From the NCBI RefSeq assembly GCF_000172995.2, contig NC_014735.1, positions 60,001-92,000 on the forward strand: a stretch of 32,000 bases of DNA, written 5' to 3'. Below the pieces are notes generated by a model that saw nothing but the letters and a program-made list of their open reading frames with translations, was not told the DNA's origin and did not search any database. Of the stretch, positions 7,809-29,534 are shown piece by piece (within the stretch, counting starts at the first letter, position 1; every line of letters begins with the position of its first letter). Made by a program: the position numbers and the translations under genes. The stretch is from Halogeometricum borinquense DSM 11551. GTDB taxonomy: Archaea > Halobacteriota > Halobacteria > Halobacteriales > Haloferacaceae.

Positions 7809-7864
7809 CGTACGCTGTGCCCCGAATCTTTTCGTTCGTCGGACGTGCCATCTCCCGAAGCGTC

Positions 7865-10376: not shown

Positions 10377-10397
10377 TACATCGCTGCGCTGCTGTAC

Positions 10398-10404
10398 TTT
10401 TTTT
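10398..10404 (+). terminator. oligo-T terminator candidate after the oleate hydratase gene
   Basis: Run of 7 T starting 22 nt after the TAA stop at 10374-10376. Archaeal termination commonly uses oligo-T tracts. Confidence 0.45.
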
Positions 10405-10568
10405 ACGGTGAGAAGCCGAGAGCGAGTTGGCCAGAAATGCGTCCGAAACTAACGGAAACCACCTGGTTTTACAACCAAGTTATCATAGGTCGAACATCTA
10501 ATGTCAGCACCACAGATTGGGCCTTGCGTGTGAAATCGCCCGGATAAAGTTCAACTACATAAGATAAA

Positions 10569-12368: not shown

Positions 12369-15212
12369 TTACAGCACCGCTCTCGTCAACTCGGCTATGT
12401 CCGCTTTCGACAACGGGTTGATATCGACACGCGTCGCCTCGGCCGTGTAGAAGATGGCGGCGGTCACATCGCGTTCGGGAAAACACTCGTGCAAGACGTG
12501 ATAGTACACGCTGAGTTGCTTCCGATATTCGGCCTCTGCGTGCCGTCCGCGATCTGTTTTGAAATCGATGATTTCGACAGTGTCAGGGAGAATATGAACG
12601 AGGTCAACCACACCTGAGATAGTCACTCGTTCACCATCGACGGTAAGCGGGAGATACACGTCCTCTTCGACCCGTATCTCACCGTCAAGTGAGTCGATCA
12701 GGGTCTTGAGATGAGACTCATCGTCGTTACCTTTCGACGGTTCAACATCCGCTCCGAGTGCGTACCGTTCGGCGAACTCGTGGACCTGTGTTCCGAACTC
12801 AGTTCCCCTTCCGCCTGCAACATCCTCGAACACGTCGTCACGCATCAACGTGTGTGGTGAGTGCCCGACCGGTCCCGCAGGTGTCGGCACCGAGATCTGC
12901 AGGTTCGCCTGTGTCGTCTCGCTACGGTCGTCTGCTTCGACCTCGGGAGTGATTTCTTCGACAGCAACCGGCAGTTCCTCGAAGAACGTGTTCGGATTCT
13001 CGCCTGCCGAAAAGACCAGATGGCTCTCCGCACGAGTCATCGAGACATAGAGCAAGCGTCGCTCCTCGTCGTACCCACGCGGCAAGCAGGTTCGGAGCAC
13101 GTCAGTCCGCCAGTTATCGTGGATATGCGGGTAGCCGTAGTCGTCAGCGTAGCGTTTCCGCTGACGGAGACCGATGGGGTCATCGAACGTGATCGTGTTA
13201 CTGTTCCCGCCGGACGGCGGGAAACGATGGCTGTTCATGTTCACAAGGATGACGATGGGATGTTCGAGACCCTTAGCCGCGTGAATCGTCTGGACAGTTA
13301 CTGAGTTCACCCCGGCGCTCGCGTGAACCTCCTGCGTGCTTCCGTTTTCGATGCCGCGTTCGATAAACTGGATGAGGTCACCACGCGTTACCGTCGTCGC
13401 GCTGTGTATCGATTGAACCGTCGTCAACAACACGTCAGCGTGCGCCCCATCGTAGTTATATCGGGAGAAGACGCGCTGTGCAACCCCGCCGATGGTCTCA
13501 AGCTCCGCCAACTCGGTCTTGAACGCCTGCATGTTATCGGGGTAGCGCTCGGTATCGAGGATGTACTCGATCTCGTCCAGTGTGTAGCCTGCCTCTTCGA
13601 GGACGACCGCCCACCCGCGCTCGGAATCGGCGTCGAGAATGCGAAGCCACGCCAATAGAAGCTTCGCGGGATCAGAGCGGAACAACTCAATTCCCCCCTC
13701 GTACGACATCGGCAGTCCGTACTCCGCCGCGGCCGACAGTAGTTCGCGCCCGAAGTCCCGTGTCCGGGTGAGAACTGCAACGTCTCCGTACTCGGGCGGT
13801 CGAAGCTCACCGTCTTCTTCGACCTGATAGTCCTCGTTCCCCGCGATTTCCTGAATCTTCGTCAAGATGGCTTCGTGTTCGTCCTCGTGCTGAATCGCCT
13901 CGATATTCGAGTTCTCGCAGGGCGTGTTCGCGGAGAGCGACACGATTCGGTCTTGGACCTCTTCGACATCGACCTTGTCTGTACTCGCGGCGGGCGTCAC
14001 CAAACTGTGTTCGGAGAAGTCCAAGATAGCCTGCGTCGAACGGTAGTTCTCGACTAGTTCGATGTCTGTGATAGGGCGAGTCGCCCACGACACTCGTTCG
14101 CCGTCCTCGTTCAGTTCCGCGACGAACCGATCCAGTCGAGACTCGAACTCGGTAATATTCTCGACCGCGGCGTACTGGAACGAGTAGATGCTCTGCTTCC
14201 AGTCACCGACGACACAGAGGTTGTTCGTGTCCGCGAGCAAGAGTGCGAGTTTGAACTGGATCTCGCTTGAGTCCTGAAACTCGTCGATCATCACGTACTC
14301 GAAGGCGACATCGTCGCGGAGGCTGTGGTCGTCACAGAGGAGGACGAAGGCAAACAACTGGAGAAAGCCGAAGTTGAGGTAATTCCGGCTCAGCGCGAAT
14401 TCGAGATACTCGAAATACACGTCGTGAACGAACTGCTTGAGGTCCGCTCGGTCCTCCTCGAACGCCCGACGTGCAACGTCGGCAGGGACCTGTTTCTCCC
14501 CCCGGCCACCACGGATTGTCGATTTGTCGGGAGCGTCCGGGAGATAACATTTGTTCCGCCCGTAGCGGCTAAGCTTCGAACGAAGCCGCGACTGTTTGCT
14601 GCCCCCGTTTCGCGGTTGATTCAACTCGTCGAACAGTTCGCTGAACGCCTCGAAATCACCGTCCAGATGGCGTTCGCCGTTTCGGTACCAGCCATCGGCC
14701 GTTGGAAAGACGCCTTTTGATGCGAGCTGTGTGAGTAATCCGAGGAGTTCGACCGGGTCTTCGATAGCACGGAAGAAGTCGTCATACGCAGCGTGGTCGT
14801 CGCTGAACCGGCGGATGAACTCACGGAACTGCGCTTTCTCGACAGTCTCGTCCTCAAGGATACGCGTCGAACCAGTAATTCGGTCGTCGATGCCGAGGTG
14901 CGTCGGTGCCTCGAACCCATGTTCCATGAGCAGGTCGTGACAGAGACTATGGAACGTCTGAATCGGAGCGTCAGAGAGTTCCCGCATCCCGTAGCCGCAG
15001 TGGGAAACGATCCGGTCTTTCATCTCGGTCGCCGCGTTATTCGTGAACGTCACGAGGAGGACGTCCGCCGGTGCAACCTCGTCCTGATCGACAATCTCCG
15101 CGTACCGGCGGGTGACAGTGAAGGTCTTCCCCGTTCCGGCACCGGCGTCAACGACGTGAATGCCGTCAGTACTGTCGATCAGGTCCTGTTGATGGTCGTT
15201 CGGTTGGGTCAT
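12369..15212 (-). CDS. UvrD/Rep-family SF1 helicase fused to a RecB-type PD-(D/E)XK nuclease (AddA-like)
   Basis: Helicase motifs occur in order: AGAGTGKT (I), VTFTNNAA (Ia), MIDEFQDSS (II), VVGDWKQSIYSFQYA (III), VENYRST (IV), TIHAAKGLEHPIV (V), YVSMTRAESHL (VI). The C-terminal nuclease motifs are GVVDLV, EIIDFKTD and QLSVYY. Confidence 0.9.
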   Translation of the reverse strand: MTQPNDHQQDLIDSTDGIHVVDAGAGTGKTFTVTRRYAEIVDQDEVAPADVLLVTFTNNAATEMKDRIVSHCGYGMRELSDAPIQTFHSLCHDLLMEHGFEAPTHLGIDDRITGSTRILEDETVEKAQFREFIRRFSDDHAAYDDFFRAIEDPVELLGLLTQLASKGVFPTADGWYRNGERHLDGDFEAFSELFDELNQPRNGGSKQSRLRSKLSRYGRNKCYLPDAPDKSTIRGGRGEKQVPADVARRAFEEDRADLKQFVHDVYFEYLEFALSRNYLNFGFLQLFAFVLLCDDHSLRDDVAFEYVMIDEFQDSSEIQFKLALLLADTNNLCVVGDWKQSIYSFQYAAVENITEFESRLDRFVAELNEDGERVSWATRPITDIELVENYRSTQAILDFSEHSLVTPAASTDKVDVEEVQDRIVSLSANTPCENSNIEAIQHEDEHEAILTKIQEIAGNEDYQVEEDGELRPPEYGDVAVLTRTRDFGRELLSAAAEYGLPMSYEGGIELFRSDPAKLLLAWLRILDADSERGWAVVLEEAGYTLDEIEYILDTERYPDNMQAFKTELAELETIGGVAQRVFSRYNYDGAHADVLLTTVQSIHSATTVTRGDLIQFIERGIENGSTQEVHASAGVNSVTVQTIHAAKGLEHPIVILVNMNSHRFPPSGGNSNTITFDDPIGLRQRKRYADDYGYPHIHDNWRTDVLRTCLPRGYDEERRLLYVSMTRAESHLVFSAGENPNTFFEELPVAVEEITPEVEADDRSETTQANLQISVPTPAGPVGHSPHTLMRDDVFEDVAGGRGTEFGTQVHEFAERYALGADVEPSKGNDDESHLKTLIDSLDGEIRVEEDVYLPLTVDGERVTISGVVDLVHILPDTVEIIDFKTDRGRHAEAEYRKQLSVYYHVLHECFPERDVTAAIFYTAEATRVDINPLSKADIAELTRAVL

Positions 15213-17797
15213 CGTGATTCCTCCTCCAGAATGCAGTCTCGGTTATCCACGTACCGATAGTTCGGATCGCCGCCGAGTCCCCCAACTGGGAACCGTTCGT
15301 CACCGGCGCGGCGAGCGTTCAACTCTTCGAGTCGTTCTTGCACGAACTGTTCGAAGGCGTCTACATCGTCTGCGAAGTAGTTCTTGTTTCGAATCCGAAG
15401 CACGTGTCTGAGCGCCTGCTTACAGCCGTTTTTTACGTATTTGTAGTCACCGACGTTCTCCTTCATCCGCGCTGTCAGCGCGTGCCCGAACTCGGAGTCG
15501 ATGAGTTCGTCGCTATCACGCGTCTGTGGGAGTTCGTGCGTCTCGAAAATCGCACGATACTCCTCGTACTCCGTTTTCGAGAACGTCTTGTTGCAGTCGT
15601 TCGCGGCCTCCGATTTCAGTTCGTTGAAGACGGCCTCTGTCGCAACGTACTCCGCGAAGGTGTGCGGATAGTACGTCACCGTCGTCAGGCAGTCGTCCAG
15701 AGAGGCCTCACCAGCGACGATGTCATCAAGCGTTTCGAGGAAGTGAAAGAACGTGAATTGGAGTTCCTGGTCTGGCTGTACGGTACGCTGGTGAGCGAGG
15801 TACAGCAGTGCTTGGAAGTTTGGCTTGTCGCTCGGTGGGTCGAGCGCCGAATGTTTGACTATCGAGTGCGCAGACTTCTTCGACCCGCTCTTGTAGTCGA
15901 GAAGATGCGTCGAGTCGTGAACGAGGTCGATTTTGCCTTTCAGACCGAGGTCGCTGTTCTCGAACCACCGTTCCGTGTGGGGTGTGTCAATGGGGCGGTC
16001 GTAGTACTCGGCGAAGAAATTCCGTCCCCAGCCGTCGTTTCCGGCAACGAACTCGTCGCCGTGGGGTGGGTTCGTGTCCAAGAACTCGACGATAGTCTGG
16101 AGTCCGAGACGGTACTTGGTGTGTCGGACCTCCCGGTCAACCCCACGGAGGAATGGATCAACTTCATCGAGGATGATCTCCGCAACTTCAGCAAGCGTCT
16201 CGTCCGTGACAGACTCGGGATGAGCGACGTAATACTCCGCAAAGTCGTGAAGCAGATTTCCTTCCCTGAAGTAGTCCTTGTCCGGAGTATCGAGAAGTCG
16301 AGAGAAAAAGTAGTCTCGGGGTGAGTTGACGTAGGTGTTGAGGCTCGACTGGCTGATGGTCGTGACTTCAGCAGCAGCGATGTCGAGTGGTTCCTTCGCA
16401 AAGCCGTCCGCCGTCGTTCGAAACGCGCGTGAGTGTGGAACCGAATCGAGATCGCTGAATCGCTCGAAGGTCTCATCGAACAGTTCCTCGAAATACAGAC
16501 ACGGGGTCACGGGTGTCCCCCCGGCGGTATCCTGTACGAGGTAGTACTGGTCGATACCGTTCTGGAGGAGCAGTTGGAACTGCTGGATGTTGCGCTCGAA
16601 CTCCCGGTCGCGGTCAACCCACGGCCGCCGTGGGGGCGAGTGCGTCCACCCCTCGTCGAGACCGAGGTAAAACACGACAGGCCGGTCAACGTGAGCCGCT
16701 GACTTCGCATCTGCCAACAGCACACCCTCGTTTCCGTGATCGACGGGGATATCGTACGTCTGTACGTAGAATTCGAGTCGGTCAACTGCCTCCTCAGTAA
16801 CGGGGTCGGTCAAGAGACCAAGCGTGGAAAGTTCGTCACGGAACGCATCGAGAACGGTGTCCGCAGCGGATTCGTAAGCATCGAGGGCCGCACTGAACGT
16901 ACCGGTACGAACCTCGTCGTGGAGTTCGAGAAGCCAGTTGGCCGCTTGCTGGTCGCTGTCGTAAAGGCGCTTTTCGTCGTGTTCGATATCGATCGATTTT
17001 CCGAACCGGGTGAGCAACGGCCTAACGTCACTAATTCGGGTCTCCCGTCCGGCATGGGCACTACGGAGAAGTTGCAGAAACGTCCTGTGATGGGGTAGGT
17101 CGTCGAATCCGGGACCGCCGTGGTACGGAATCCCCGCCGCCTCGAATGCGGATTCGATGAGCGACGAGTACTGACTGGCAGCATCGAGGACGACACCGAC
17201 GTCATCGGCGTTTTCCTGAGTGACAGTATCGAGAACTGCATCGACAATCGCGGCCGGAGAGTCAAAGACACGGAACGGCGGGTAGTCGAACGTCTCATCG
17301 GCGAACGGATCGATTGTCTCGTAGTCGGGCGGGAGAATCGAACGTTCGAGTGCGGTAAGTTGCGTTAGTCCGACGACGGCAACTGACGTATCGGCATCGA
17401 TAGTGTACTCGGTGAGTCGGCGGAGGGTTGTGTCCGACTCACTGACGCAGTTAACGACTGTCCGCGTTGCTGCAGTGCGGAACAGTTCGTATTCGAGGAT
17501 TGACTCGGCCGTTCCTTGATACTCCCAGCATTGGTGGATGTTTCCGACCGCATGGGACGCCTCCTTCCAATCGAGGTCGGTCGATTCGATACTTTCGAGA
17601 AACGAAAGTCGGTACTCGTCCTGTTCGCGGCGTTGTGCAGCGAGGCGACGGGGCGTGATCGCAAACGGACCAAAGTGTGGTCGGTCGAGACGCCGATTGA
17701 GTGCGCTCGCCATCGGCGCGTCGGGCACGAGCACAAGGTCAAAGCCCTTGCATTCCTCGTAGAGGGCGTCGATAGATTTCGCTCGTGTGATTGGCAC
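15209..17797 (-). CDS. PD-(D/E)XK nuclease protein with a degenerate helicase-like body (AddB/RexB-like)
   Basis: 862 aa with a GTG start. Its stop overlaps the downstream helicase start (ATGA on the minus strand, 15209-15212). There is no Walker A. VLLADAKSAAHVDRPVVFYLGLDEGW resembles the AddB 2A-domain remnant. The C-terminal nuclease motifs are GKIDLVHD, LLDYKSG and FQALLYL. Confidence 0.75.
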   Translation of the reverse strand: MPITRAKSIDALYEECKGFDLVLVPDAPMASALNRRLDRPHFGPFAITPRRLAAQRREQDEYRLSFLESIESTDLDWKEASHAVGNIHQCWEYQGTAESILEYELFRTAATRTVVNCVSESDTTLRRLTEYTIDADTSVAVVGLTQLTALERSILPPDYETIDPFADETFDYPPFRVFDSPAAIVDAVLDTVTQENADDVGVVLDAASQYSSLIESAFEAAGIPYHGGPGFDDLPHHRTFLQLLRSAHAGRETRISDVRPLLTRFGKSIDIEHDEKRLYDSDQQAANWLLELHDEVRTGTFSAALDAYESAADTVLDAFRDELSTLGLLTDPVTEEAVDRLEFYVQTYDIPVDHGNEGVLLADAKSAAHVDRPVVFYLGLDEGWTHSPPRRPWVDRDREFERNIQQFQLLLQNGIDQYYLVQDTAGGTPVTPCLYFEELFDETFERFSDLDSVPHSRAFRTTADGFAKEPLDIAAAEVTTISQSSLNTYVNSPRDYFFSRLLDTPDKDYFREGNLLHDFAEYYVAHPESVTDETLAEVAEIILDEVDPFLRGVDREVRHTKYRLGLQTIVEFLDTNPPHGDEFVAGNDGWGRNFFAEYYDRPIDTPHTERWFENSDLGLKGKIDLVHDSTHLLDYKSGSKKSAHSIVKHSALDPPSDKPNFQALLYLAHQRTVQPDQELQFTFFHFLETLDDIVAGEASLDDCLTTVTYYPHTFAEYVATEAVFNELKSEAANDCNKTFSKTEYEEYRAIFETHELPQTRDSDELIDSEFGHALTARMKENVGDYKYVKNGCKQALRHVLRIRNKNYFADDVDAFEQFVQERLEELNARRAGDERFPVGGLGGDPNYRYVDNRDCILEEESR

Positions 17798-18777: not shown

Positions 18778-19185
18778 ATGACCGTACATGGGATGATACC
18801 CATGGACTGGAACCGCCTCGGACCACGTGAAAAGGAACTGTTAGCAATCCTGCGACGGAGCGAACAGTCCTTGACTTCGCGGGAAGTCCAGCGTGAACTC
18901 CGAGAAGACGGCGTCGATGTCGTGTACTCGACAGTGAGTGCGACACTCGACCGCCTCGTCGAGAAGCGGTTAGTGGACCGAACCGAGGAGATGCAGCGTG
19001 GATCACCTCGATACCGACACACCTTCGCGGCCGACCAGTACGCCGGTGAACTCCTCGATTCGATCGTCGAGGACGTATCCGAAGTCCTCGGTACTGACGG
19101 CCTGACTGGACTGGTGCGAAGGGCCGAGGCGATGGGCGGGGATGAGCAATCGAACGAACACAACCCTACAAATACGAAAGCATGA
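18778..19185 (+). CDS. BlaI/MecI/CopY-family winged-helix transcriptional regulator
   Basis: LGPREKELLAILRRSEQSLTSREVQRELREDGVDVVYSTVSATLDRLVEKRLVDRTEE..GSPRYRHTF fits the Penicillinase_R pattern (..YSTV.T.L.RL..K.L..R....G....Y). It lacks the C-terminal CxCxxxxCxC of CopY. The start is ambiguous (ATG 18778, 18793 or 18802). The stop overlaps the halocyanin start (ATGA at 19182-19185). Confidence 0.7.
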   Translation: MTVHGMIPMDWNRLGPREKELLAILRRSEQSLTSREVQRELREDGVDVVYSTVSATLDRLVEKRLVDRTEEMQRGSPRYRHTFAADQYAGELLDSIVEDVSEVLGTDGLTGLVRRAEAMGGDEQSNEHNPTNTKA

Positions 19186-19697
19186 CAACGAAACTCGATA
19201 GGCGGAAGTTGATGAAGCAAATTGGAATCACTGGGACCGTAGCGCTGCTGGGTGGCGTCGCCGGATGTACCAGTAGCGCTGACTCAAGCGGTGATGGGGG
19301 TGCGGAGACTGAGGCGAAGACCGCGACATCCAAACCGAAGGACAGCTCGTCGGACGGTGAAAAGTGGACGAAAACCGACACCGTCGATATGAACGATGAA
19401 CTGAAATTCGCACCGAAGCGCATCAAAGTGGAGTCAGGAACGACTGTCACGTGGAAGAACGTCGGTGCAGTCGGCCACACCGTCACCGCCTATGAGGACG
19501 AGATACCCGACGGCGCGACGTACTTCGCGTCGGGTGGATTCGACTCCGAGAAAGCGGCGAAAGACGGCTATCCCGACAAGGGGAACGTGACAGAAGGAGG
19601 CACCTACGAGCACACGTTCGAGACCAAGGGAACGTACAAGTACTACTGTGTACCGCACGAGATGAACGCAATGGTCGGATACGTCAAGGTTATTTAA
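19182..19697 (+). CDS. halocyanin / plastocyanin-like type-1 blue copper protein, Tat lipoprotein
   Basis: Signal RRKLMKQIGITGTVALLGGVAGC (twin-Arg plus lipobox). Type-1 Cu ligands are GAVGHTV and YYCVPHEMNAMVG (C-x2-H-x4-M). Confidence 0.9.
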   Translation: MTTKLDRRKLMKQIGITGTVALLGGVAGCTSSADSSGDGGAETEAKTATSKPKDSSSDGEKWTKTDTVDMNDELKFAPKRIKVESGTTVTWKNVGAVGHTVTAYEDEIPDGATYFASGGFDSEKAAKDGYPDKGNVTEGGTYEHTFETKGTYKYYCVPHEMNAMVGYVKVI

Positions 19698-19698
19698 A

Positions 19699-21717
19699 AT
19701 GAGTTCACACGACACATCGGAGGGGGAGGAGACCGACACCAAAACAGAGCGTAGCGCAGAGACATTACTATCGGAACACGAGGCGCAGTTGAATGCGCTT
19801 ATTGCAGACGTACAGGGGCCGGACGCGGACCCAGTAGAGACGCAACTTCCGAATCTCGGTCTTGGTCTCGGTCGCCGGGACTTCATGAAAGCGGGGGCAG
19901 CCGTCGGGGTTCTGGGCTCCGTCGCCGGGTGTGCAGGGCAGGGCGACAGCCAGGGTGGTACAGCCACGCCGTCTTCGAGTCACGGCGATGTGCCCGACCA
20001 CTTCGTTCCGCCGGGCGAACACGACAAGTACTACGGCTTCTGGAGTGGCGGTCACTCCGGCGAAGTGAGAGTAATGGGAATTCCGTCGATGCGGGAACTC
20101 ACGCGAATCCCCGTGTTCAACAGGGAGTGCGCGAAGGGATACGGTTTCGACGACGGAACGGGGGAGATGCTTAAAGACGCAGGCGACTACACGTGGGGTG
20201 ACTCTCACCACCCGAGCTTATCCGAGACCGATGGGAAGTACGACGGCGAGTACCTATTCGTCAACGACAAAGCCAACGGCCGCGTCGCACGGGTGAATCT
20301 GAAGTACTTCGAGACGGATGCGATTCTGGACGTGCCGAACGTCCAGTCAGTCCACGGATGCTGCATTCAGAGCCCCGACACCGAGTACGTCTTCGCCAAC
20401 GGTGAGTTCCGTGCGCCGCTTCCAAACGACGGGCGCGACGTAGACGACCCGTCGAAGTACGTCTCGCTGTTTTCGGCCATCGACCCCGAAAGCATGGACG
20501 TACTCTGGCAGGTGAAAGTCAGCGGCAACCTCGACATCGCCGACTCCGACAAAGACGGCCGGTGGCTGCTCTCGTCGTCGTACAACGACGAAGAGGGGGT
20601 CGAAATCGAGGAGATGACCCGCGACGACCGCGACTCGGTGAAGGCGTTCGACGTACCAGCCATTCAGAAAGCGGTTGATGCCGGGAAGTACGAGGAGGTC
20701 AACGGCGTCCCCGTCGTCGATGGGACCCGTGAAAGTTCACTCAACAAGGGCGATAACCCACTCGTCCGCTACATCCCGACGCCGAAATCACCCCACTGCG
20801 TTGAGGTGACGCCGGACGGAAAGTACGGCATCGTCGCCGGAAAGCTCTCTCCGACCGTCTCGATCATCGATATCGAGAAACTCGGAACCGAACCCGACCC
20901 GGCGAAGACGATTGTCGGCCAGCCCAAACTCGGTCTCGGTCCACTGCACACTACGTACGACGACCGCGGTCACGGGTACACCTCGCTGTTCATCGACTCG
21001 CAGGTCGTCAAGTGGGATATCGAAAAGGCAGTGGAGTCACCAAAAGGCTCCGAGGAGGCCATTCTCGGGAAGATAGACGTCCACTACAACCCAGGACACA
21101 TCCAAGCGGTACAGGCAATGTCCGTCGAACCGACCGGCGATTGGCTCGTCGTCCTCAACAAACTGTCGAAGGACCGGTTCCTCCCAGTCGGACCGATTCA
21201 CCCCGACAACGACCAACTCATCTACATCGGAAACGACAAAGACAACGAAACCGGTGGAATGGAACTGGTTTCCGATCACCCCGTCTATCCCGAACCGCAC
21301 GACGCCATCATGGTCCACAAAGACAAGTTGGACCCGGCGAAGATATGGGATGCCAAGGACTACGAGGGAGAACGGGAGTACATCTCCGAGAAGAACTCGG
21401 GAATCGAACGCCTCGACGACTCGACCGTCGAGGTGAACATGAGTTCCAAGCGGAGCGAGTTCGGCCTCCGTGAATTCACGGTGAAAGAAGGCGACGAAGT
21501 GCAGATGACCGTGACGAACATCGAGAAGAGTCCGGACATCATCCACGGAGTTGCCATCCCCGAACACGACATCAACCTCGCGCTCGCCCCACAGGACACT
21601 CGGGAAGTAACGTTCGCCGCGGATGATCCCGGCGTCTACTGGATCTACTGCACGTACTTCTGTAGCGCACTGCACCTAGAGATGCGCTCGCGGATGATCG
21701 TCGAACCACGGGACTGA
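19699..21717 (+). CDS. nosZ: nitrous-oxide reductase
   Basis: 672 aa. Tat motif GRRDFMKAG (RR at residues 59-60) and lipobox VAGC (Cys78). CuZ-region WGDSHHPSLSETDGKYDGEYLFVNDKANGRVARV. CuA loop CTYFCSALHLEM (21649-21684). The gene starts 1 nt after the halocyanin stop. Confidence 0.97.
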   Translation: MSSHDTSEGEETDTKTERSAETLLSEHEAQLNALIADVQGPDADPVETQLPNLGLGLGRRDFMKAGAAVGVLGSVAGCAGQGDSQGGTATPSSSHGDVPDHFVPPGEHDKYYGFWSGGHSGEVRVMGIPSMRELTRIPVFNRECAKGYGFDDGTGEMLKDAGDYTWGDSHHPSLSETDGKYDGEYLFVNDKANGRVARVNLKYFETDAILDVPNVQSVHGCCIQSPDTEYVFANGEFRAPLPNDGRDVDDPSKYVSLFSAIDPESMDVLWQVKVSGNLDIADSDKDGRWLLSSSYNDEEGVEIEEMTRDDRDSVKAFDVPAIQKAVDAGKYEEVNGVPVVDGTRESSLNKGDNPLVRYIPTPKSPHCVEVTPDGKYGIVAGKLSPTVSIIDIEKLGTEPDPAKTIVGQPKLGLGPLHTTYDDRGHGYTSLFIDSQVVKWDIEKAVESPKGSEEAILGKIDVHYNPGHIQAVQAMSVEPTGDWLVVLNKLSKDRFLPVGPIHPDNDQLIYIGNDKDNETGGMELVSDHPVYPEPHDAIMVHKDKLDPAKIWDAKDYEGEREYISEKNSGIERLDDSTVEVNMSSKRSEFGLREFTVKEGDEVQMTVTNIEKSPDIIHGVAIPEHDINLALAPQDTREVTFAADDPGVYWIYCTYFCSALHLEMRSRMIVEPRD

Positions 21718-21723
21718 ACCATC

Positions 21724-22488
21724 ATGAATCTGCCAGGACGAACCGAGTTCGCCCAACTCCGCCGGTTGCTTCCGGTGGGAGCGGCAGTGCTGCTGCTCGG
21801 TGCACTGTTACTCCCGATGTGGTCCATCGAGATGCACGCCGTGCAGTATCCGAACGAACCGCTCCACCTCAGCCTGTACGCCTACCCACAGGTCAGCGGC
21901 GACTTCGTCGAGATCCATCGGCTGAACAAATACATCGGGTTCTACTATCCGGATCCTGTGTTCTGGCAGCCGAACTACGAACCGCACCCGCGGGCGATAG
22001 ACGTTCCGGAGTGGTCGCTCGGGCCACTAGCGTTCGTCGGGGTGGCTGCAACGAGTGTGTTCGTTGCGCTCGCGCCGACCGCCCGGAAACTCCGGCGTGG
22101 CCTCACACTCCAACTTGTCGGGGCCGTCGCGGTGTTCGCCGGTCTGCTGGCAGACATCCAGTTCCGACTGTATCAGGCAGGCCACACGCTGGATCCGGAT
22201 GCGCCTGTCATGGGCGTTGAGGGGTTCACACCGCCGCTTTTGGGAACCTATTCGGTTGCCAATATCACGAGTTACTCGCGGTTCGGTGCCGGTGCCTACC
22301 TGACGATGCTTGCTATCGGACTGCTGGTGGTTAGCTACGCGGTCCGCAATTCGACGGTCACGCTGTGGGAGGTCCCGGGATACGCCCGGAACCGATTCAC
22401 GGGCGACGACGAGACGACGGAACCGACAACCGGGACGACAAGCGAGCGAGCGTCCGCTCCGGACGCCTCCCGAACGGGGCGGCGGTAA
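21724..22488 (+). CDS. 4-TM integral membrane protein of unknown function, in the position nosB occupies in clade II clusters
   Basis: 254 aa with four hydrophobic helices (LLPVGAAVLLLGALLLPMW, LGPLAFVGVAATSVFVALAP, LQLVGAVAVFAGLLADI, AYLTMLAIGLLVVSYAV) and a large first extracytoplasmic loop. It starts 6 nt after the nosZ stop and ends 2 nt before the nosD start. Confidence 0.7.
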   Translation: MNLPGRTEFAQLRRLLPVGAAVLLLGALLLPMWSIEMHAVQYPNEPLHLSLYAYPQVSGDFVEIHRLNKYIGFYYPDPVFWQPNYEPHPRAIDVPEWSLGPLAFVGVAATSVFVALAPTARKLRRGLTLQLVGAVAVFAGLLADIQFRLYQAGHTLDPDAPVMGVEGFTPPLLGTYSVANITSYSRFGAGAYLTMLAIGLLVVSYAVRNSTVTLWEVPGYARNRFTGDDETTEPTTGTTSERASAPDASRTGRR

Positions 22489-22490
22489 CG

Positions 22491-23873
22491 ATGCCGTCTG
22501 TATCGGCCGAACGAGCGTTCGCCCTCTTCGCGGTCGTCGTTCTCCTCGGCACGACACTCTCAGCGCTGACGGTTCCGACGGCCGCAGGAGCGGATGACAG
22601 CCTCGCCTTCGAACCCGGTGTTCCGGAAGAGTACGCCTTCGACGCACCGACCGAAACGGGAACGGCGACCGTCGGCGGCGACTCCTACGAGTCGGTACAA
22701 GCGGCCGTCGATGCGGCCACGCCCGGAGACACCGTCCACATACGGGGGTCCTTCTCCGAGCGTGTTATCATCTCGACGCCGAACATCACACTCGAAAGCG
22801 CACCCGGTCGGTTGGCCCGTATCGACGGCGATGAGACGGAAGATGCACTCACGATAGACGCCGACGGCGTTACTGTCCGCCGAATCTGGATTCACAACTC
22901 CGGACGCGACACCGGAAGTAACGACGCCGGCATCTGGGTCAACGGCACGGACGCGCGCATACTCGACAGTCGTCTGACTGACGTCACCTTCGGTATCTGG
23001 GTGAACGGCGTTGACGACGTACTTCTGCGGAACAACACGATTGTCGGCCGCGAAGCGGTCCGGCCGTTATCCTATCGAGGAAACGGCATCCAACTCTGGA
23101 AAACGACAGATACCCGCGTCGTCGAAAACCGCATCACCGACGTTCGAGACGGGTTGTACTACTCGTGGGCGTCGAACGTAACCGCACGGGAGAACACGAT
23201 GTGGGAACTTCGATACGGCGTCCACTACATGTACTCGGACGACTGCCGGTTACAGAACAACACCTCGTTCGATAACGACGTCGGCTACGCGCTCATGCTC
23301 TCAGAGCACATTGAGGTCGTAGATAACGTCGCCGTGAACAACACCGGCGTGAGCGGACACGGGATTCTCCTCAAGCGGATCGACGACTCCGTCGTTCGGG
23401 GGAATCACTTCGTCGGCAACGACCGGGGCATCTACGTGCTGAACTCGGTCCGAAACGTGATGGCAAACAACCTCGTCATGGAGAACGGCATCGGCGTCCA
23501 TCTCACCGCCGGAACCGAAGACGAACGCGTCTTCGGGAATAGCTTCGTCAATAACGACCGGTCAGTGTTCGCGGTCACCGGCGAGTTGGCCGTCTGGAAC
23601 GCGTCCGAACGAGGTAACTACTGGTCGTCCGCCGACGCCGCCGACATCGACAACGACGGCATCAGCGACGTTCGCTACCGGCCGTCTGGACTGGTAGAGC
23701 ATCTGATCTACGAGCATCCACAGGCGGCGGTGTTCGCAGACAGCCCCGCATTCGACGCCATCCGCTTGGCTGAGAGTTCCTTCCCGGTCATCGAATCACC
23801 GGGAGTTGTCGATCACCACCCGCTCACGACACCACCACACAGCGACTGGAGACGATACTATGAACGCAATTGA
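22491..23873 (+). CDS. nosD: copper-enzyme maturation beta-helix protein NosD
   Basis: Signal MPSVSAERAFALFAVVVLLGTTLSALTVPTAAG, then many parallel beta-helix repeat units (N-x-I/V-x-x-N: LRNNTIVG, VENRITD, ARENTMW, LQNNTSF, VVDNVAVNN, VRGNHFVGN, MANNLVMEN, FGNSFVNN). The ATG at 22491 is preferred over the track start at 22365. Confidence 0.9.
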   Translation: MPSVSAERAFALFAVVVLLGTTLSALTVPTAAGADDSLAFEPGVPEEYAFDAPTETGTATVGGDSYESVQAAVDAATPGDTVHIRGSFSERVIISTPNITLESAPGRLARIDGDETEDALTIDADGVTVRRIWIHNSGRDTGSNDAGIWVNGTDARILDSRLTDVTFGIWVNGVDDVLLRNNTIVGREAVRPLSYRGNGIQLWKTTDTRVVENRITDVRDGLYYSWASNVTARENTMWELRYGVHYMYSDDCRLQNNTSFDNDVGYALMLSEHIEVVDNVAVNNTGVSGHGILLKRIDDSVVRGNHFVGNDRGIYVLNSVRNVMANNLVMENGIGVHLTAGTEDERVFGNSFVNNDRSVFAVTGELAVWNASERGNYWSSADAADIDNDGISDVRYRPSGLVEHLIYEHPQAAVFADSPAFDAIRLAESSFPVIESPGVVDHHPLTTPPHSDWRRYYERN

Positions 23874-24828
23874 CGTAACCGACGTAACGCAAACCTACGG
23901 CGACGTGACGGCTCTCGACGGCCTGTCACTATCCATCGAACCGGGGACTACCTTCGGTCTGCTCGGTACGAACGGTGCAGGAAAGTCTACGCTGTTCAAA
24001 CTGGTCGTCGGGCACGTCCGACCCGACACCGGCACGGTTTCGGTCGCCGGGCAGAACGTTGAGACAGCAGGCCCGGCCATCCGTAGCGAAGTCGGATACC
24101 TGCCCGAACACGCCGGATTCCCACCAGCGCTTACCGGCCGGGAGGTACTCGAATTTCACGCGAAGATGCGCGGGCTCGACGACGCGGACGACCGCATCGA
24201 AAGCGTTCTCAGTCTCGTCGGACTGCGTGACGCCGCCGACCGGCGAACCGGCGGGTACTCGAACGGAATGAATCGCCGTCTCGGATTGGCGACAGCGCTG
24301 CTTTCCCGACCGACGATTCTCCTGCTGGATGAACCCACTGCAGGCCTCGATCCACGAGGAGTCGCCGCGTTCCACGACGTCGTCGAACGACTAGCGCGGG
24401 ACGACGACCTCACGGTCGTCCTCTCCTCGCACGTGCTCTCGGAGGTCGAAAAGTTGTGTGATACGGTCGGCATCGTTCACAACGGGCGACTGCGTGCTGG
24501 CGGGTCGGTCGAAGCGTTGAAGCGAGACCTGATCGACGGCGTCCGAGTCCGCGTCCGTCTGGCCGACGCGGGGTCAATGGCCGACGCGACTTCAGTAGTC
24601 GATGAACACGACGGAGCCATTCGGTCCCAATCTAACCGCGAGTTCACCGTCGAATGCTCGTCGGAAGTCCCCCCCGGCCTGTTAGACGACCTGATGGACG
24701 CCGCGTCGCTGTCGGGGTACGAGGTTACCGAGCCGGGCCTCGAACAGGTCTTCGAGCACACTCTTGGCGGCGCGTCGAAGAAAGAGCAGGGAGAAGACGC
24801 GGAAGAGCAGGAGAGGGAGAAAACATGA
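23860..24828 (+). CDS. nosF: ABC ATPase NosF
   Basis: Walker A GTNGAGKST, signature YSNGMNRRLGLA, Walker B ILLLDEPTAGLD, H-loop SSHVL. Overlaps the nosD end by 14 nt. Acidic C-terminal tail KKEQGEDAEEQEREKT. Confidence 0.9.
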   Translation: MNAIDVTDVTQTYGDVTALDGLSLSIEPGTTFGLLGTNGAGKSTLFKLVVGHVRPDTGTVSVAGQNVETAGPAIRSEVGYLPEHAGFPPALTGREVLEFHAKMRGLDDADDRIESVLSLVGLRDAADRRTGGYSNGMNRRLGLATALLSRPTILLLDEPTAGLDPRGVAAFHDVVERLARDDDLTVVLSSHVLSEVEKLCDTVGIVHNGRLRAGGSVEALKRDLIDGVRVRVRLADAGSMADATSVVDEHDGAIRSQSNREFTVECSSEVPPGLLDDLMDAASLSGYEVTEPGLEQVFEHTLGGASKKEQGEDAEEQEREKT

Positions 24829-25775
24829 CCGAAGGACCTAACAGAGCGGATTCCGGTCGAAGCCACGAGACAGACGGTGGGGTCACAACGACCGGAGACG
24901 CTAACGTGACAGAACCAACCGATGTAGCGGAAGCACCAGAAGTGACGGAATCAACCGACGGGCAGGATAGCAGTGCGCTCCGACAGATTGCCACGGTCGC
25001 GGGCATGGAGTTCCGACTCTCGGTTCGGAATCGCTGGGCGGTTGCGCTGGCCGCGCTATTCACCCTCTTTGCGTCGCTCATCGTCGGCTTCGGCGCGTCG
25101 AGTGTCGGCCCGGTACGGGCGGATGCGGTCATCGTGAGTATGGCCTCGTTGGCAACGTATCTGCTCCCCCTCGCTGCGCTGGTCTTCGGCTTCGATGCAG
25201 TCGTGGGGGCCGAGGAACGCGGCTGGCTTGACATCGTGTTTGCACTCCCTGTCTCGCGTGCGCGAGTCGTCGTCGGGTCGTACCTCGGACGGGCGGTCAC
25301 GCTCGTGGCCGCGACGAGCATCGGCTTCGGAATCGGCGGGATTCTGCTGTTTTCGGTGGCATCGAGCGCTAACACCGTGTTGTACGCGACGTTCCTGCTC
25401 GGTTCAGTTGCGCTGGGACTGGGGTTCCTCGCAGTCGGCGTGTTCGTCTCGTCGGTCGTCGGTGAGAAGACCCACGCACTGGGGGCCGCACTCCTCGTCT
25501 GGGTCTGGTTCGTGTTCGGACACGACCTGCTCGCACTCGGTCTCGTGGCCGGGTCAAAACTCCCACAGAGCGCGTTATCGGTGATGGTCCTCTCGAATCC
25601 GGTGAGCGTCTTCCGAGTGTTCGTCCTCTCGGGTATCGACTCGACCGGCGGCGGACTGGCGACCGTCGTAGGGGAATCCACGCTCTCGATGCCACTTCTC
25701 GCAGTCGCGGCGACCGTCTGGGTCGTTGTCCCCGTCGCCGCCGCGGCGCGTGCTGTGCGCCATCGGAGCCTCTAG
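24825..25775 (+). CDS. nosY: ABC-2 permease NosY
   Basis: ATGA overlap with the nosF stop (24825-24828). About 6 hydrophobic helices follow an acidic N-terminal extension of roughly 60 aa. An alternative internal start at MEFRLSV is possible. Confidence 0.85.
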   Translation: MTEGPNRADSGRSHETDGGVTTTGDANVTEPTDVAEAPEVTESTDGQDSSALRQIATVAGMEFRLSVRNRWAVALAALFTLFASLIVGFGASSVGPVRADAVIVSMASLATYLLPLAALVFGFDAVVGAEERGWLDIVFALPVSRARVVVGSYLGRAVTLVAATSIGFGIGGILLFSVASSANTVLYATFLLGSVALGLGFLAVGVFVSSVVGEKTHALGAALLVWVWFVFGHDLLALGLVAGSKLPQSALSVMVLSNPVSVFRVFVLSGIDSTGGGLATVVGESTLSMPLLAVAATVWVVVPVAAAARAVRHRSL

Positions 25776-25827
25776 CCCGCCGCCATCGCTTTCTACCTCG
25801 GTCATCGCTAAAATACCGAAAGCGAGT

Positions 25828-25905
25828 TCCTAAATGCCGGTGCTCCGGAGTCCTAAATGCCGGTTAGCAGCAGGCGTAAATAGCGGTAAGAAGCCGGTAA
25901 GAAGC
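25828..25905. repeat. two pairs of short direct repeats in the convergent nosY / repeat-gene spacer
   Basis: tcctaaatgccggt occurs at 25828-25841 and 25851-25864 (23-bp period). cggtaagaagc occurs in tandem at 25884-25894 and 25895-25905. Confidence 0.5.
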
Positions 25906-25939
25906 AGCCCAGAAAAGTGCGTCCCCGCGTGGAGACGGC

Positions 25940-27109
25940 TTAGTCGCTCTCGAAGTCAAGGTCGTCGTGCTCGACATCGAGGTCACCACCGTCGTGTTCG
26001 ATGTCGTGATCGTCGTCCTCGAACTCGGTTCTGTCGTCGTCGCTCTCGAAGTCGAAGTCGTCGGTCTCGACTTCGAGGCTGTCGCCGTCGTGCTCGATAT
26101 CGTGGTCGTCAGTTTCGACCTCGACGCGGCCGTCTCTGATCTCGATATCGATCCCGCCGGAGCCGTCGAACTCAAACTCGACGCGACCGTCGTCGCTGTC
26201 GAATTCGAGGTCGTCGCTTTCGACCTCGGCACGGTCGCCGTCACGTTCGATCTCGAAGTCGTCGCCTTCGACGTCAACGCGGTCGTCGTCGCTCTCGAAG
26301 TCGAGGTCGTCAGTTTCGACCTCCGCGCGGTCGTTATCCCGTTCCACCTCGATGTCGTCGAGTTCGATATCTACGTCGCGTCCACCGTCGAACACCACGT
26401 TACCGTTGTCATCAGTGTCGAGGGTGAACTCGAAGTCGCCGTCATCTCCCTCGACTTCGATGCGGTCGCCGTCGAATTCGACGTCGAAGTCGTCGCTCTC
26501 AAGATCGAGAGTCGATCCGTCGTACTCGAAGTCGAAGTCGTTCGTCTCGACCTCAATGTCACCATCGGCGTCGATCTCGACATCGAAGTCGTCAGTCTGG
26601 ATTTCGATCGTGTCGCCGTCGAATTCGATATCGAACTCGTCGCCCTCGATTTCGACCCTGTCGCCGTCGCTCTCGATGTCGAGGTTTTCGTTATCGCTCT
26701 CGACATCGTACTCGCCGTTTTTGCGTTCGATCTCGAAGTCATCACTGTCGACCTCGAGGTCGTTGCCGTTGTATTCGACATCGAGAGTGAGGCTGCCGCT
26801 ACGACCTTCGACCTCAATCTCGTTACCGTTAATCTCGACCTCGACGTCGTCACTCTCAAGGTCGATGCGGTCACCGTCTAGCTCGATATCGAAGTCGTCA
26901 CCCTCGATTTCGACGCGACCATCGGACCGAAACTCAATGTCGAAGTCGTCACCATCTAGCTCGACACGCTCATCACTAGTTTCCACATCGAAGTTGCTAG
27001 ACCGGTGGCTTGCTGCGACCGGTGCAACCATCACGGAGAGCACCATCACGAGTACCAGTATCGGTGCAAGTACTCTCGCTATGTTCCGCCGCCCGTATAT
27101 TTGAATCAT
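25940..27109 (-). CDS. secreted ultra-acidic tandem octapeptide-repeat protein, unknown family
   Basis: ATG start. Signal-like N-terminus MIQIYGRRNIARVLAPILVLVMVLSVMVAPVAAS. The remainder is about 40 units of a 5-residue alternating hydrophobic/acidic strand plus a 3-residue acidic turn (RVEIEGDD FDIEFDGD ...). The C-terminal units contain His. Confidence 0.75.
   Translation of the reverse strand: MIQIYGRRNIARVLAPILVLVMVLSVMVAPVAASHRSSNFDVETSDERVELDGDDFDIEFRSDGRVEIEGDDFDIELDGDRIDLESDDVEVEINGNEIEVEGRSGSLTLDVEYNGNDLEVDSDDFEIERKNGEYDVESDNENLDIESDGDRVEIEGDEFDIEFDGDTIEIQTDDFDVEIDADGDIEVETNDFDFEYDGSTLDLESDDFDVEFDGDRIEVEGDDGDFEFTLDTDDNGNVVFDGGRDVDIELDDIEVERDNDRAEVETDDLDFESDDDRVDVEGDDFEIERDGDRAEVESDDLEFDSDDGRVEFEFDGSGGIDIEIRDGRVEVETDDHDIEHDGDSLEVETDDFDFESDDDRTEFEDDDHDIEHDGGDLDVEHDDLDFESD
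25943..26998 (-). repeat. coding tandem repeat, roughly 24-bp unit / 48-bp super-unit
   Basis: Degenerate periodic GAC/GAG/GTC/TTC/ATC codon array (gtcgaagtcgtc-type words recur throughout). It keeps several frames open on both strands. Confidence 0.8.
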
Positions 27110-27311
27110 GGTTCTTCATGTTGCTATACACTAGAGGGTGGCGACAGTCCGAAGCAAAGGTGAGCACCGGTGATCCGGAGACCAACCGAGTACCTTACGA
27201 CTGCTTCTAGGGAGTCGTCAAACCGACTGTGAACAGCTATGTGAATCTACGACCGGATGTGATATGAACTATCCCTAACAAGTGGGATAGGAAGTAACCT
27301 CAAAATCACCT

Positions 27312-27316
27312 AAAAA
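27312..27316 (-). terminator. oligo-T terminator candidate after the YD-like repeat gene
   Basis: The plus-strand aaaaa reads TTTTT on the minus strand, about 37 nt downstream of the stop at 27353. A 7-bp-stem hairpin follows (ctatccc / gggatag, 27269-27290). Confidence 0.35.
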
Positions 27317-27352
27317 TAGAGAACTTCCAGACGGGGTCCGACGGGAGCGACG

Positions 27353-27949
27353 CTAGTCATCGAAATCGTCGTCGTCACGATCCGATTCGATGAGGATCCC
27401 GTTCGCGTCGTATACCCGGCGTACGTCGTCGCCGTCCTCGTCGTCTTTCTGGAACACCCGAAGCGTTCCGGTTTCGTCGTACCATCGCTCTCTCTCATCA
27501 CCGTCGTCGTCTTCGGTTCGCTGGAACCTGAGTGTCCCGTTCACGTCGTATATCCGTTCTTCCTCGTCGTCGTCTTCCTCTTCTTCTCGGTAGACCCGGA
27601 GTGTGCCGTTCCCGTCGTAGATCCACTCTTCTTCGTCGCCATCCTCCTCCTCTGTTCTACGGTAGCGCACTATCCCATTGCGGTCGAACTCCGTTCGCTC
27701 CTCGTCACCATCGTCATCAACTTCCTCGACGAATCCACCGTCGGGTCCGATACAGGACTCGAACTCCTCCCCGTCGGTAGTCTCATACTTGACGAATCGC
27801 CGGCATTTGTCGGTGGACCCGGCTCTATACTCGATGACGTCGTCAGGGCTATGAGTTGCCGTCGCGGCCTGTGGCAATACCGTGACCCCACCGACGAGAA
27901 CCCCAAGCGTACGGAGGCAGTCACGTCTAGTCGGGGAGAGATGACTCAT
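27353..27949 (-). CDS. Tat-exported acidic protein with five 23-24-aa YD-like repeats
   Basis: The internal ATG at 27949 gives MSHLSPTRRDCLRTLGVLVGGVTVLPQAATA (twin-Arg signal). Repeats: RTEFDRNGIVRYRRTEEEDGDEEE / WIYDGNGTLRVYREEEEDDDEEE / RIYDVNGTLRFQRTEDDDGDERE / RWYDETGTLRVFQKDDEDGDDVR / RVYDANGILIESDRDDDDFDD. Confidence 0.7.
   Translation of the reverse strand: MSHLSPTRRDCLRTLGVLVGGVTVLPQAATATHSPDDVIEYRAGSTDKCRRFVKYETTDGEEFESCIGPDGGFVEEVDDDGDEERTEFDRNGIVRYRRTEEEDGDEEEWIYDGNGTLRVYREEEEDDDEEERIYDVNGTLRFQRTEDDDGDERERWYDETGTLRVFQKDDEDGDDVRRVYDANGILIESDRDDDDFDD
27356..27697 (-). repeat. coding tandem repeat, roughly 69-72 bp unit, 5 copies
   Basis: DNA encoding residues 85-198 of the protein above. 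The periodic motif is Y-D-x-x-G-x-L-R plus a poly-D/E linker. Confidence 0.7.
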
Positions 27950-28974
27950 GATGGCGCACCCCCAGAATATCCGGGCGGGATCCAAGACGGCCACAAACGA
28001 GAGGCTTTCGGGATTACGTGACTGGGAACCTGTAGCTCGACGATCCGGCTCACGAGGTGGGGCATCGCGACAACAGTGACGATGCTGCTCGACAGTCTTG
28101 ATGTGAGTTTCATACAATATATTGTGCCCTTGTGTTTATATCTGTGCGCTAACTAACCAATAGTTACTTTCCACTTCGCCACGCAGTTAGGTTCGGCTCA
28201 GGTCGAAAAGGCAGTTTCACGGGAGAAACCTCGTGAAGTGAGGAGATTACCTCGATTAAGCGACTTCGCCATGACAGCAATAACGATGTAATACCATATC
28301 GAGTGAATCTCAACTGTACATCGTATATTCAGAGACGTCGGCCGAAAAAAGAAGAGAGTGAAGCCGTCCAGCGTCAGAAACCAAGATAAAGAAAGAGATC
28401 ATACGTAATGAATCCAGAATAGGAAATGGATTCCAGATACATTATCATTTCACGAGAGATATGTGCCTATGTATGATTTTCTTAACCTGAAATTTGAATA
28501 ACTCGACTGAGATGGCAAAAAACGAGTTCAGATGTTCGAGTCAGAAACTCTACGAAATAGAATGTAGCGAGTGAGATCGGCCGCATTCACACACTGGGCA
28601 GATCTTCGACCAGAAGCCCGCCTACCGCGCTTGTCAGTATCCAAGCCTATACGAACCAGTCCCCATTGACCGACAAATCGTTTGGTAGTCGGTTGGTCGG
28701 TGCCGTCAACGCAACCCATGTCAGAACAACCGGCGAGGGCGCTGACCGACCCACCGATGGTTACCGTGAGATATCGCCGCCTCGAAATCTTCGAGAAGGA
28801 GAGAATATATAATCCCGATTTGGGTCCAAGTCTTGTTAATTTATTCTGTGAAGCCGCAACCTGATCTCATACTTGGCCCTTTATTTATGTATAATTCACA
28901 ATACCACATGTATTTGGTCAATATATAAGTATTATTCAGATGTATAAATTCATATCAATGAAATCTGGGTTAGT

Positions 28975-29010
28975 CTGATGACGGATTGCGGGTCTAACCG
29001 CAGACATCAG
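28975..29010 (-). terminator. hairpin immediately downstream of the PCD gene
   Basis: ctgatg..tgcgg-gtctaa-ccgca..catcag nested inverted repeat ending 4 nt from the stop codon at 29014-29016. Confidence 0.3.
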
Positions 29011-29013
29011 CCA

Positions 29014-29367
29014 TCAATTCGGTTCGTACTCCTCGTGAATGCGGTCCATCCGCGCCGCCATCACAAAGTCGGTCTTATGTAACCCATCGATTTTGTGAGT
29101 CCACATCTCGACGCGTACTTTGCCCCAAGTGAGGTGAATGTCCGGGTGGTGCCACTCTTCCTCAGCGAGTTCGCCAATCTCGTAGGTAAACTCCAGTGCG
29201 TCGCGGAAGTCCTCGAATTCGTAGGTGCCTTCGAGATAGTACTCATCGACGACTTCCCACACACTGTCGTCGAGTTCGGTGAGGTAGTTCGCGTACTCGT
29301 CTTCGGTGAGCGGTTCATCCGCCGAAGTACACGCTTCGCATTCTTGGTCTGCGAGAGTTGATGCCAT
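29014..29367 (-). CDS. pterin-4-alpha-carbinolamine dehydratase (PCD/DCoH)
   Basis: [39 protein letters not shown] matches the PCD signature (E..HHP......V.......H...GL...D). The ATG at 29367 (MASTLADQ) is preferred. Confidence 0.9.
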
Positions 29368-29534
29368 GTGTAATGATACGGTCGCCAGCAGCATGTATCT
29401 TCACCAGCAGCGCAGAACCGAGATGAGAACAACGCCGGACAGGGGAACCACCCAGACGAACCGCACAGTGTGAGTCATGTGGTCCAAAAACAACTACCCT
29501 CGAAATTATGATCGTCTGCGCTCAGTATACACAC

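Follow-up and report, generated by a model that had tools for sequence, protein, structure and literature searches.

A miniature, hyper-acidic family of YD-type hairpin-repeat proteins with a predicted Tat signal in haloarchaea

The very large closed shells of Rhs toxins, Tc toxins and teneurins are built from YD repeats. Smaller hairpin-repeat proteins have been described as well: MORN_2 proteins (PF07661; YwqK-type) are small and consist of 22-23-amino-acid (aa) beta-hairpin repeats with an aromatic-x-x-N-G-x-L core, and MORN2-domain proteins are expanded in invasive Fusobacterium (PMC4222103). The single-layer beta-sheet of the Borrelia protein OspA, together with its engineered extensions, provides a structural precedent of flat, two-faced, solvent-exposed hairpin repeats with no hydrophobic core. 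Here we analyse a 32,000-nucleotide (nt) stretch of Halogeometricum borinquense DSM 11551 (contig NC_014735.1, positions 60,001 to 92,000; this whole stretch is called the window, and coordinates are positions in it unless a locus in another genome is named), in which a minus-strand gene encodes a 198-aa protein with hairpin repeats of this kind. We regard the repeats as a YD-type hairpin in a 23-aa variant that borders on the MORN-variant model; by sequence profiles the kinship to YD repeats is real but weak. What is new is a miniature, hyper-acidic, haloarchaea-restricted version of a known repeat type, equipped with a signal of the twin-arginine translocation (Tat) type; the gene is uncharacterised. 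In the reading that we put forward, whose chances of being right we consider about even, the protein would be exported and would act, without catalysis, as a beta-sheet strip together with co-clustered acidic octapeptide-repeat proteins.

The features of the gene are given below, with the evidence for them in brackets.

27353..27949, minus strand: gene of the 198-aa protein, ATG 27949-27947, stop 27355-27353 (open reading frame, ORF, and sequence)
27857..27949, minus strand: predicted Tat signal peptide, residues 1-31, with T-R-R-D-C-L-R, the uncharged stretch TLGVLVGGVTVLPQAATA and a probable cleavage after A-T-A
27722..27856, minus strand: N-terminal cap, residues 32-76, two degenerate hairpins with C49 and C66 (register stack; predicted strands; alignment)
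27653..27721, minus strand: repeat 1, residues 77-99 (autocorrelation, logo)
27584..27652, minus strand: repeat 2, residues 100-122, with 75% DNA identity to repeat 3 (autocorrelation, logo)
27515..27583, minus strand: repeat 3, residues 123-145, the sole unit with DDD replacing DGD (alignment)
27446..27514, minus strand: repeat 4, residues 146-168, with a sub-threshold Pfam MORN_2 match at residues 154-164
27377..27445, minus strand: repeat 5, residues 169-191, sheet-closing, with a variant second strand L-I-E-S versus L-R-x-x
27356..27376, minus strand: acidic C-terminal tail DDDDFDD (alignment; model confidence, as pLDDT, falls to 60 in the last block)

The initial annotation of this DNA had described five tandem repeats with a period of 23-24 aa, separated by poly-acidic linkers. 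Five such units are present, but they repeat every 23 aa exactly: at lag 23 the BLOSUM62 autocorrelation amounts to 2.66, whereas shuffles give -0.44 +/- 0.25 (z = 12.3), and in 1000 shuffles no lag produced a value as high. The logo, which covers 68 units in 15 proteins, is E-D-D-D(93%)-G(87%)-D(78%)-E(78%)-x4-[YF]-D(100%)-x-N(72%)-G(99%)-T-L(88%)-R(78%)-x4. The acidic tract thus has fixed positions, including a glycine, and is therefore not a plain low-complexity spacer; the linkers of the initial annotation are better described as conserved five-residue turns and strand ends within a continuous predicted sheet (see below). The Cys-containing region that had been noted between the signal and the repeats is confirmed, with C49 and C66 unchanged in all 13 sequences compared. 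This region (the 45 mature N-terminal residues) is itself made of two more hairpins, degenerate but in register with the 23-aa repeats, which brings the protein to seven hairpins instead of five.

Repeats 2 and 3 mark the most recent duplication, given their DNA identity (45-64% for the other repeat pairs). Repeat 3 is also the unit absent from four-repeat relatives (an alignment gap in P0004 and P0006-P0009), so repeat number, which ranges from four to six across the family, is still changing. The R-D-D ... F-D-D ending is shared by several relatives. The mature part of about 166 aa contains 38.6% Asp+Glu and 13.3% Arg+Lys (19 Arg, 3 Lys), with an isoelectric point of 4.05 and a net charge of about -42, and charged residues account for 52% of its composition. 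Strand A of the hairpin is Glu-rich and strand B Arg-rich in the logo, which suggests cross-strand salt bridges between the two.

The repeats share with Rhs/YD proteins (PF05593) the aromatic-D-x-x-G-x-L hairpin and another D-x-x-G turn, which precedes the next aromatic-D by six residues, and the profile of the mini-protein family and hidden Markov models (HMMs) of YD repeats detect each other. A search of 1.84 billion representatives with the family profile gave 4942 matches at E<=1e-3; the best 150 of these are nearly all one to eight thousand residues long, with 5-26 matched stretches each. The giant matches have a median of 39 YD motifs. Out of seven that were scanned, three have strong RHS_repeat matches (E 1e-106 to 1e-162), one is just over the cutoff (23.9 vs 22 bits) and three have none; one profile match carries the source name 'YD repeat-containing protein'. 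In the highest-scoring single stretch, the alignment spans four repeats in a row and reaches 36 bits (i-E 5.5e-4 at library size). When structures in the PDB were searched by sequence profile, the top matches were Rhs proteins (8h8a, E 7.5e-6; 7q97, E 3.5e-4), followed by Tse5 and Tre23, and no MORN structure was among the matches of this search.

For the reverse direction, two HMMs were built from giant-protein repeats alone. The HMM of the best-matching segments, which had been pre-selected by similarity, scores the 198-aa protein at 56.5 bits and its best relative at 99.2 (shuffle maximum 11.1); the HMM of random canonical 21-aa triplets (consensus YDAAGRL..TDALGN....Y.YD) scores them at 32.4 and 64.1 bits, respectively (shuffle maximum 8.8). 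The YD resemblance pointed out in the initial annotation therefore stands at the profile level, with the family profile finding RHS_repeat proteins and Rhs structures and the canonical HMM finding the protein. Among curated models, MORN_2 matches 11 out of 13 family members at E<=1 (best E 1.9e-8) and RHS_repeat gives weak matches in five out of 13 (best E 0.025), and one relative has a precomputed 'faint' PF05593 match. The MORN_2 match does not discriminate between the two labels, because a bona fide Rhs protein is likewise sub-threshold on this model (22.5 bits).

The mini-protein differs from both repeat types in several respects. Spacing between motifs has its mode at 21 aa in the giants (2190 cases), versus 23 aa in the family (45 out of 53 spacings), and the mini-protein lacks a plug, the Rhs core with its aspartyl autoprotease and a toxin domain. 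Hyper-acidic and restricted to haloarchaea, it also carries a putative Tat-type signal. None of 141 giant matches has a halophilic composition (the highest Asp+Glu content is 18%); haloarchaeal giant YD proteins were rejected on this ground as a source of the repeats. With MORN_2 proteins the family shares the tandem hairpin meander, but its second turn is acidic (D-G-D-E), it has a putative Tat-type signal, it is archaeal and it lacks a toxin partner.

Three large proteins (P0033, P0069 and P0104) are strong matches of the family profile with no RHS_repeat match at E<=0.001; the repeats of P0069 have short D/N-G turns (e.g. DGS, DGT, NG). The three may represent unmodelled hairpin-repeat families.

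An AlphaFold2 model of the 198-aa protein, built from nine sequences, has a mean predicted local distance difference test score (pLDDT) of 84.6, with 89-98 over residues 41-190. Its 14 strands, of six to seven residues each, are mostly connected by five-residue turns, and no helix follows the signal peptide, so that one continuous antiparallel sheet, a seven-hairpin meander, is confidently predicted. The strands of the N-terminal cap (residues 38-44, 51-57, 62-68 and 71-77) have pLDDT values of 89-95, and the acidic tracts, modelled as five-residue turns plus strand ends, have values of 96-98. In Foldseek, engineered OspA single-layer sheets match best (6kk9, 2fkj and 3cka; E 1.8e-7 to 5e-6, template modelling (TM) score 0.6-0.67); next come Rhs cores (7q97, E 7.7e-5), then MORN1 (6t68, E 1.5e-4, TM 0.46) and teneurins. 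The resemblance to OspA is best taken as structural analogy only: sequence similarity is marginal (11-14% identity in structural alignments; profile E 0.055-0.7), and the OspA sheet is capped by globular domains whereas that of the mini-protein would be capped by degenerate hairpins. Fourteen strands, versus the very many of an Rhs shell, are too few for closure into such a shell. A single-layer state in solution, with both faces of the sheet exposed, would fit the model, its Foldseek matches and the content of charged residues.

About 16 relatives of the 198-aa protein are known in billions of proteins. We found nine matching clusters among 5.77 billion clusters; the profile search of 1.84 billion representatives found about 14 short proteins (144-256 aa) plus the H. 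borinquense protein's own cluster, and a second profile search (13 sequences) added one more member, P0159. The named members all belong to Halobacteria: H. borinquense, H. limi, Haloferax mediterranei (WP_004060670.1, HFX_RS18835; on the megaplasmid pHM500), Halegenticoccus tardaugens, Haloarchaeobius and a Halobacteriaceae archaeon. The remaining members come from metagenomes and public sequencing runs. Members of the family are full-length proteins of 144-276 aa with their own signal peptide and caps, from at least five genera.

In haloarchaea most secreted proteins are routed through the Tat pathway, and the N-terminus of the 198-aa protein has the corresponding layout: T-R-R-D-C-L-R is followed by 18 uncharged residues ending in A-T-A. 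Conservation of R8, R9 and L12 in the family is 90% or higher, in agreement with the twin-arginine N-terminus of the initial annotation, and the relatives have A-x-A ahead of a DD mature start, so that the [ST]-R-R-x-x-L motif, uncharged stretch and A-x-A site typical of haloarchaeal Tat-exported proteins are kept across the mini-protein family. AlphaFold2 places a low-pLDDT helix at residues 8-21, within the signal. From these sequence features Tat-pathway export is most likely, with probable cleavage near residue 31. The protein has no lipobox and no C-terminal anchor, and is therefore predicted to be released, or held by non-covalent contacts only.

The signal depends on the choice of start codon. 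The longest frame of the ORF runs from a TTG at 28117 to the stop at 27353, and the ATG at 27949 gives the 198-aa product, which shares 100% identity with a hypothetical protein from Halogeometricum borinquense and has its start annotated identically in three public assemblies. The N-termini of the relatives all begin a few residues ahead of the aligned [ST]-R-R-x-x-L motif. Guanine plus cytosine (GC) content at the three codon positions (GC1/2/3) is 68/38/67 for the ORF and 62-72/25-46/67-75 for the genes around it, versus 62/54/55 for the in-frame extension (27950-28117). Because the N-termini of relatives align, the three assemblies agree and the extension lacks the coding GC pattern, the start at 27949, as initially annotated, is preferred over the upstream one at 28117. 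About 1.06 kb upstream of the gene (27950-29013) contain no annotated gene in the three assemblies and have a GC content of 46%, vs 57% in the window. TATA-like AT-rich boxes can be read from the sequence near 28116-28143; if they are used, the TTG at 28117 lies outside the transcript. A search for structured RNA in 25700-29500 gave no Rfam match at E<=1.

Downstream on the same strand lies a gene for a second repeat protein, and relatives of it recur near orthologues of the mini-protein. The features concerned are the following.

25940..27109, minus strand: linked gene, encoding a 389-aa hyper-acidic octapeptide-repeat protein predicted to be exported
27312-27316, minus strand: T5 run 37 nt past the stop codon of the 198-aa gene, a possible archaeal terminator between the two genes
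Locus L013 (H. limi), 9476-10447: 323-aa homologue of the 389-aa protein (tblastn E 3.6e-31)
Locus L001 (Haloferax mediterranei pHM500), 1-1142: HFX_RS18815, 464-aa homologue (tblastn E 6.5e-27)
Locus L019 (Halobacteriaceae archaeon GCM10025711), 7583-8386: 267-aa homologue (tblastn E 1.6e-18)
Loci L013, 4077-7242 (H. limi) and L019, 4144-7299 (Halobacteriaceae archaeon): triad of Tat-type Peptidase_S8, mini-protein and BAT/HTH_10 regulator

The gap of 243 bp between the two genes and the oligo-T tract in it are as first described. The initial annotation had also proposed that the two genes form a module of secreted acidic repeat proteins. Gene lists alone gave the impression that the pair is not conserved, but tblastn searches starting from the neighbour proteins overturned this for four genomes: out of six isolate genomes, four (H. 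borinquense included) have a homologue of the 389-aa protein no more than about 5 kb away from the orthologue. The link thus recurs, but it is not universal (two isolate loci and three metagenome contigs lack it), and only H. borinquense shows strict same-strand adjacency, apart from a weaker paralogue of the 389-aa protein (221 aa, E 9e-8) that is adjacent in Haloferax mediterranei. Further acidic paralogues are found in H. limi and the Halobacteriaceae archaeon. Order and orientation of the mini-protein and the 389-aa homologue vary between genomes, so simple inheritance of one frozen block is unlikely. The co-clustered octapeptide-repeat proteins contain 30-51% Asp+Glu; HFX_RS18815, with 51% over 380 residues, is among the most acidic natural proteins in these data.

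The start of the 389-aa neighbour is disputed among public annotations (368 vs 389 aa), and a G-R-R-N motif and a hydrophobic N-terminus are kept only in the 389-aa form. Its single-sequence AlphaFold2 model (pLDDT 69) has an N-terminal helix and about 42 six-residue strands connected mostly by two-residue turns; a fold search with this low-confidence model gave uninformative matches (TM<=0.19 relative to the model).

Regulators and a protease are found near some orthologues. In H. limi and the Halobacteriaceae archaeon GCM10025711 the order is S8 protease (plus strand), mini-protein (plus strand) and BAT/HTH_10 regulator (minus strand), and between these two genomes the proteases are 57% identical and the regulators 59%, the mini-proteins only 52%. 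An HxlR gene and a gene for a PAS-GAF-BAT regulator are located upstream of the orthologue in Haloferax mediterranei.

Taken together, these data suggest the following picture. A soluble protein would be exported through Tat and cleaved near residue 31. Each of its 23-aa units would form strand A, a D-x-N-G turn, strand B and a [ED]-D-x-D-G-D-E turn. Because the strands are too few for Rhs-like shell closure, the sheet is expected to be a free-standing single-layer strip, rigid, two-faced and highly charged, with its N-terminal end capped by the two-hairpin Cys unit and its C-terminal end by the variant last hairpin and the acidic tail. If both faces are exposed, halophilic adaptation can acidify nearly all non-structural positions, which would explain the 'poly-acidic linkers'. 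The 198-aa protein has no catalytic residues or cofactor motifs, so that non-catalytic extracellular binding or scaffolding is the most likely activity, and the protein may act as a rigid binding or scaffold strip outside the cell. Its partners are probably the co-clustered exported octapeptide-repeat proteins; in some genomes a secreted S8 protease adjoins it as well, with BAT/HTH_10-type regulators nearby. A more speculative extension, to which we assign a rather low probability, is that the mini YD strip and the octapeptide-repeat proteins co-assemble, sheet-on-sheet or edge-to-edge, into an extracellular polyanionic beta-sheet material on the envelopes of some Haloferacaceae. Such a co-assembly, if real, would be a protein-based matrix or a cation/water reservoir of a kind not described in archaea, and with its building block a free-standing single-layer sheet of YD type would be known from nature for the first time.

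Several results weigh against an exported YD-type strip with acidic partners. Neither Pfam RHS_repeat (gathering score 22 bits) nor the NCBIfam/TIGRFAM YD models match the 198-aa protein even at E<=10, which is the outcome of the profile comparison suggested along with the initial annotation, and the sole curated model touching this protein is Pfam MORN_2, below its cutoff (20.4 bits, E 5e-4; cutoff 29.6). The E-values of the giant proteins add up many weak short-motif matches, the higher-scoring reciprocal HMM had its segments selected beforehand, and convergence on a hairpin motif may be involved. The continuous sheet is a prediction. As for export, the curated TAT-signal HMMs (Pfam TAT_signal, TIGR01409) gave no match at E<=10; short models of TAT signals often miss archaeal ones. 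The neighbour family was not found within +/-10 kb of the orthologue in Halegenticoccus and in GCA_026586625.1, nor on three metagenome contigs, and a comparison of 13 upstream regions for a shared regulatory motif revealed nothing above shuffles. Finally, our literature search returned no paper mentioning the accessions and no expression, proteomic, genetic or biochemical datum.

We weighed this reading against several others. An extracellular polyanion or cation binder, whose turn carboxylates would bind or buffer Mg2+/Ca2+ or a mineral/crystal surface at the envelope together with the linked acidic proteins, is unlikely though well within reason: it would account for the Asp+Glu content and net charge of the mature protein, for an acidic turn that is position-specific (the D, G, D and E of the logo) and recurs at fixed spacing along a rigid predicted sheet, and for linked proteins that reach 39-51% Asp+Glu. 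However, the protein matches no EF-hand, RTX or other calcium-binding family at E<=10, the same Asp/Asn/Gly positions are conserved in ordinary YD repeats (YDAAGRL..TDALGN), where they are structural, and high acidity is expected of any fully exposed haloarchaeal protein. We consider it improbable, more so than cation binding, that the mini-protein is primarily the partner of a secreted subtilisin-like protease, as its inhibitor, its folding or anchoring helper, or its processed substrate or precursor. In H. limi and the Halobacteriaceae archaeon, whose proteases are better conserved than their mini-proteins, the mini-protein gene is indeed preceded at 80-108 bp by a same-strand gene for a Tat-type Peptidase_S8, and haloarchaeal halolysins activate secreted precursor proteins (PMC12893001); but there is no S8 gene in the 32-kb window, nor within 6 kb of the gene in Haloferax mediterranei or in the other contexts. 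The halolysin-precursor system of Haloferax mediterranei was also considered as a counterpart and rejected, as the published precursor HFX_0892 is alpha-helical and unrelated (PMC12893001).

Three further explanations are much less probable. The acidic tracts could be flexible, disordered linkers joining five short YD hairpins like beads on a string, and runs of Asp/Glu are indeed classic low-complexity sequence, but the conserved positions of the tract (Gly among them), the period fixed at 23 aa in 45 out of 53 family spacings and the high pLDDT of the turns make this very improbable. We give hardly any credence to a role in the cytoplasm as an immunity protein or antitoxin of the YwqK-like kind (MORN repeat variant). 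The one curated Pfam model that touches the family is MORN_2 (11 out of 13 members at E<=1), and the H. limi member is named 'MORN repeat variant' in UniRef; on the other hand, the conserved twin-arginine signal points to export, a toxin-like neighbour is found in none of nine contexts, and the sub-threshold MORN_2 score is shared by a true Rhs protein. Least credible of all, and close to negligible in our estimate, is a piece left over from the decay of a large Rhs/YD toxin gene: the profile similarity to Rhs proteins would fit, but a full-length family with its own signal and caps in at least five genera would not. Moreover, a six-frame scan of the 32-kb window with the family HMM and the YD HMM found this ORF alone and no other YD-like sequence, no giant match reaches a halophilic composition, and no flanking Rhs core or toxin remnants were seen in the relatives.

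If the exported single-layer strip is correct, a family of about 170-200-aa proteins made from only seven YD hairpins would show that the brick of the giant shells can exist, and be selected, alone, and a natural salt-adapted single-layer beta-sheet would serve folding and design studies. The recurrent linkage to a second extremely acidic beta-repeat family points to an unstudied set of haloarchaeal extracellular proteins. The family is rare and we infer its role from sequence, so these prospects call for caution.

The other side of the two acidic repeat genes is occupied by a nos (nitrous-oxide reductase) cluster on the plus strand (window 19182-25775), which converges on these two minus-strand genes and consists of the following genes.

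19182-19697, plus strand: cupredoxin
19699-21717, plus strand: NosZ
21724-22488, plus strand: 254-aa ORF with no Pfam match
22365-23873, plus strand: NosD
23806-24828, plus strand: ABC ATPase
24654-25775, plus strand: ABC-2 permease

A link between the mini-protein and the nos cluster was considered and rejected, as a 'NosD-like' neighbour in H. limi is dissimilar to the NosD of the window and there are no nos genes near the other orthologues. Elsewhere in the window, genes for a UvrD-helicase protein and a PD-(D/E)XK nuclease protein are found in tandem on the minus strand (12369-17797), an arrangement like that of AddAB, and a separate MCRA gene (oleate hydratase family) is located on the plus strand between 8763 and 10376.

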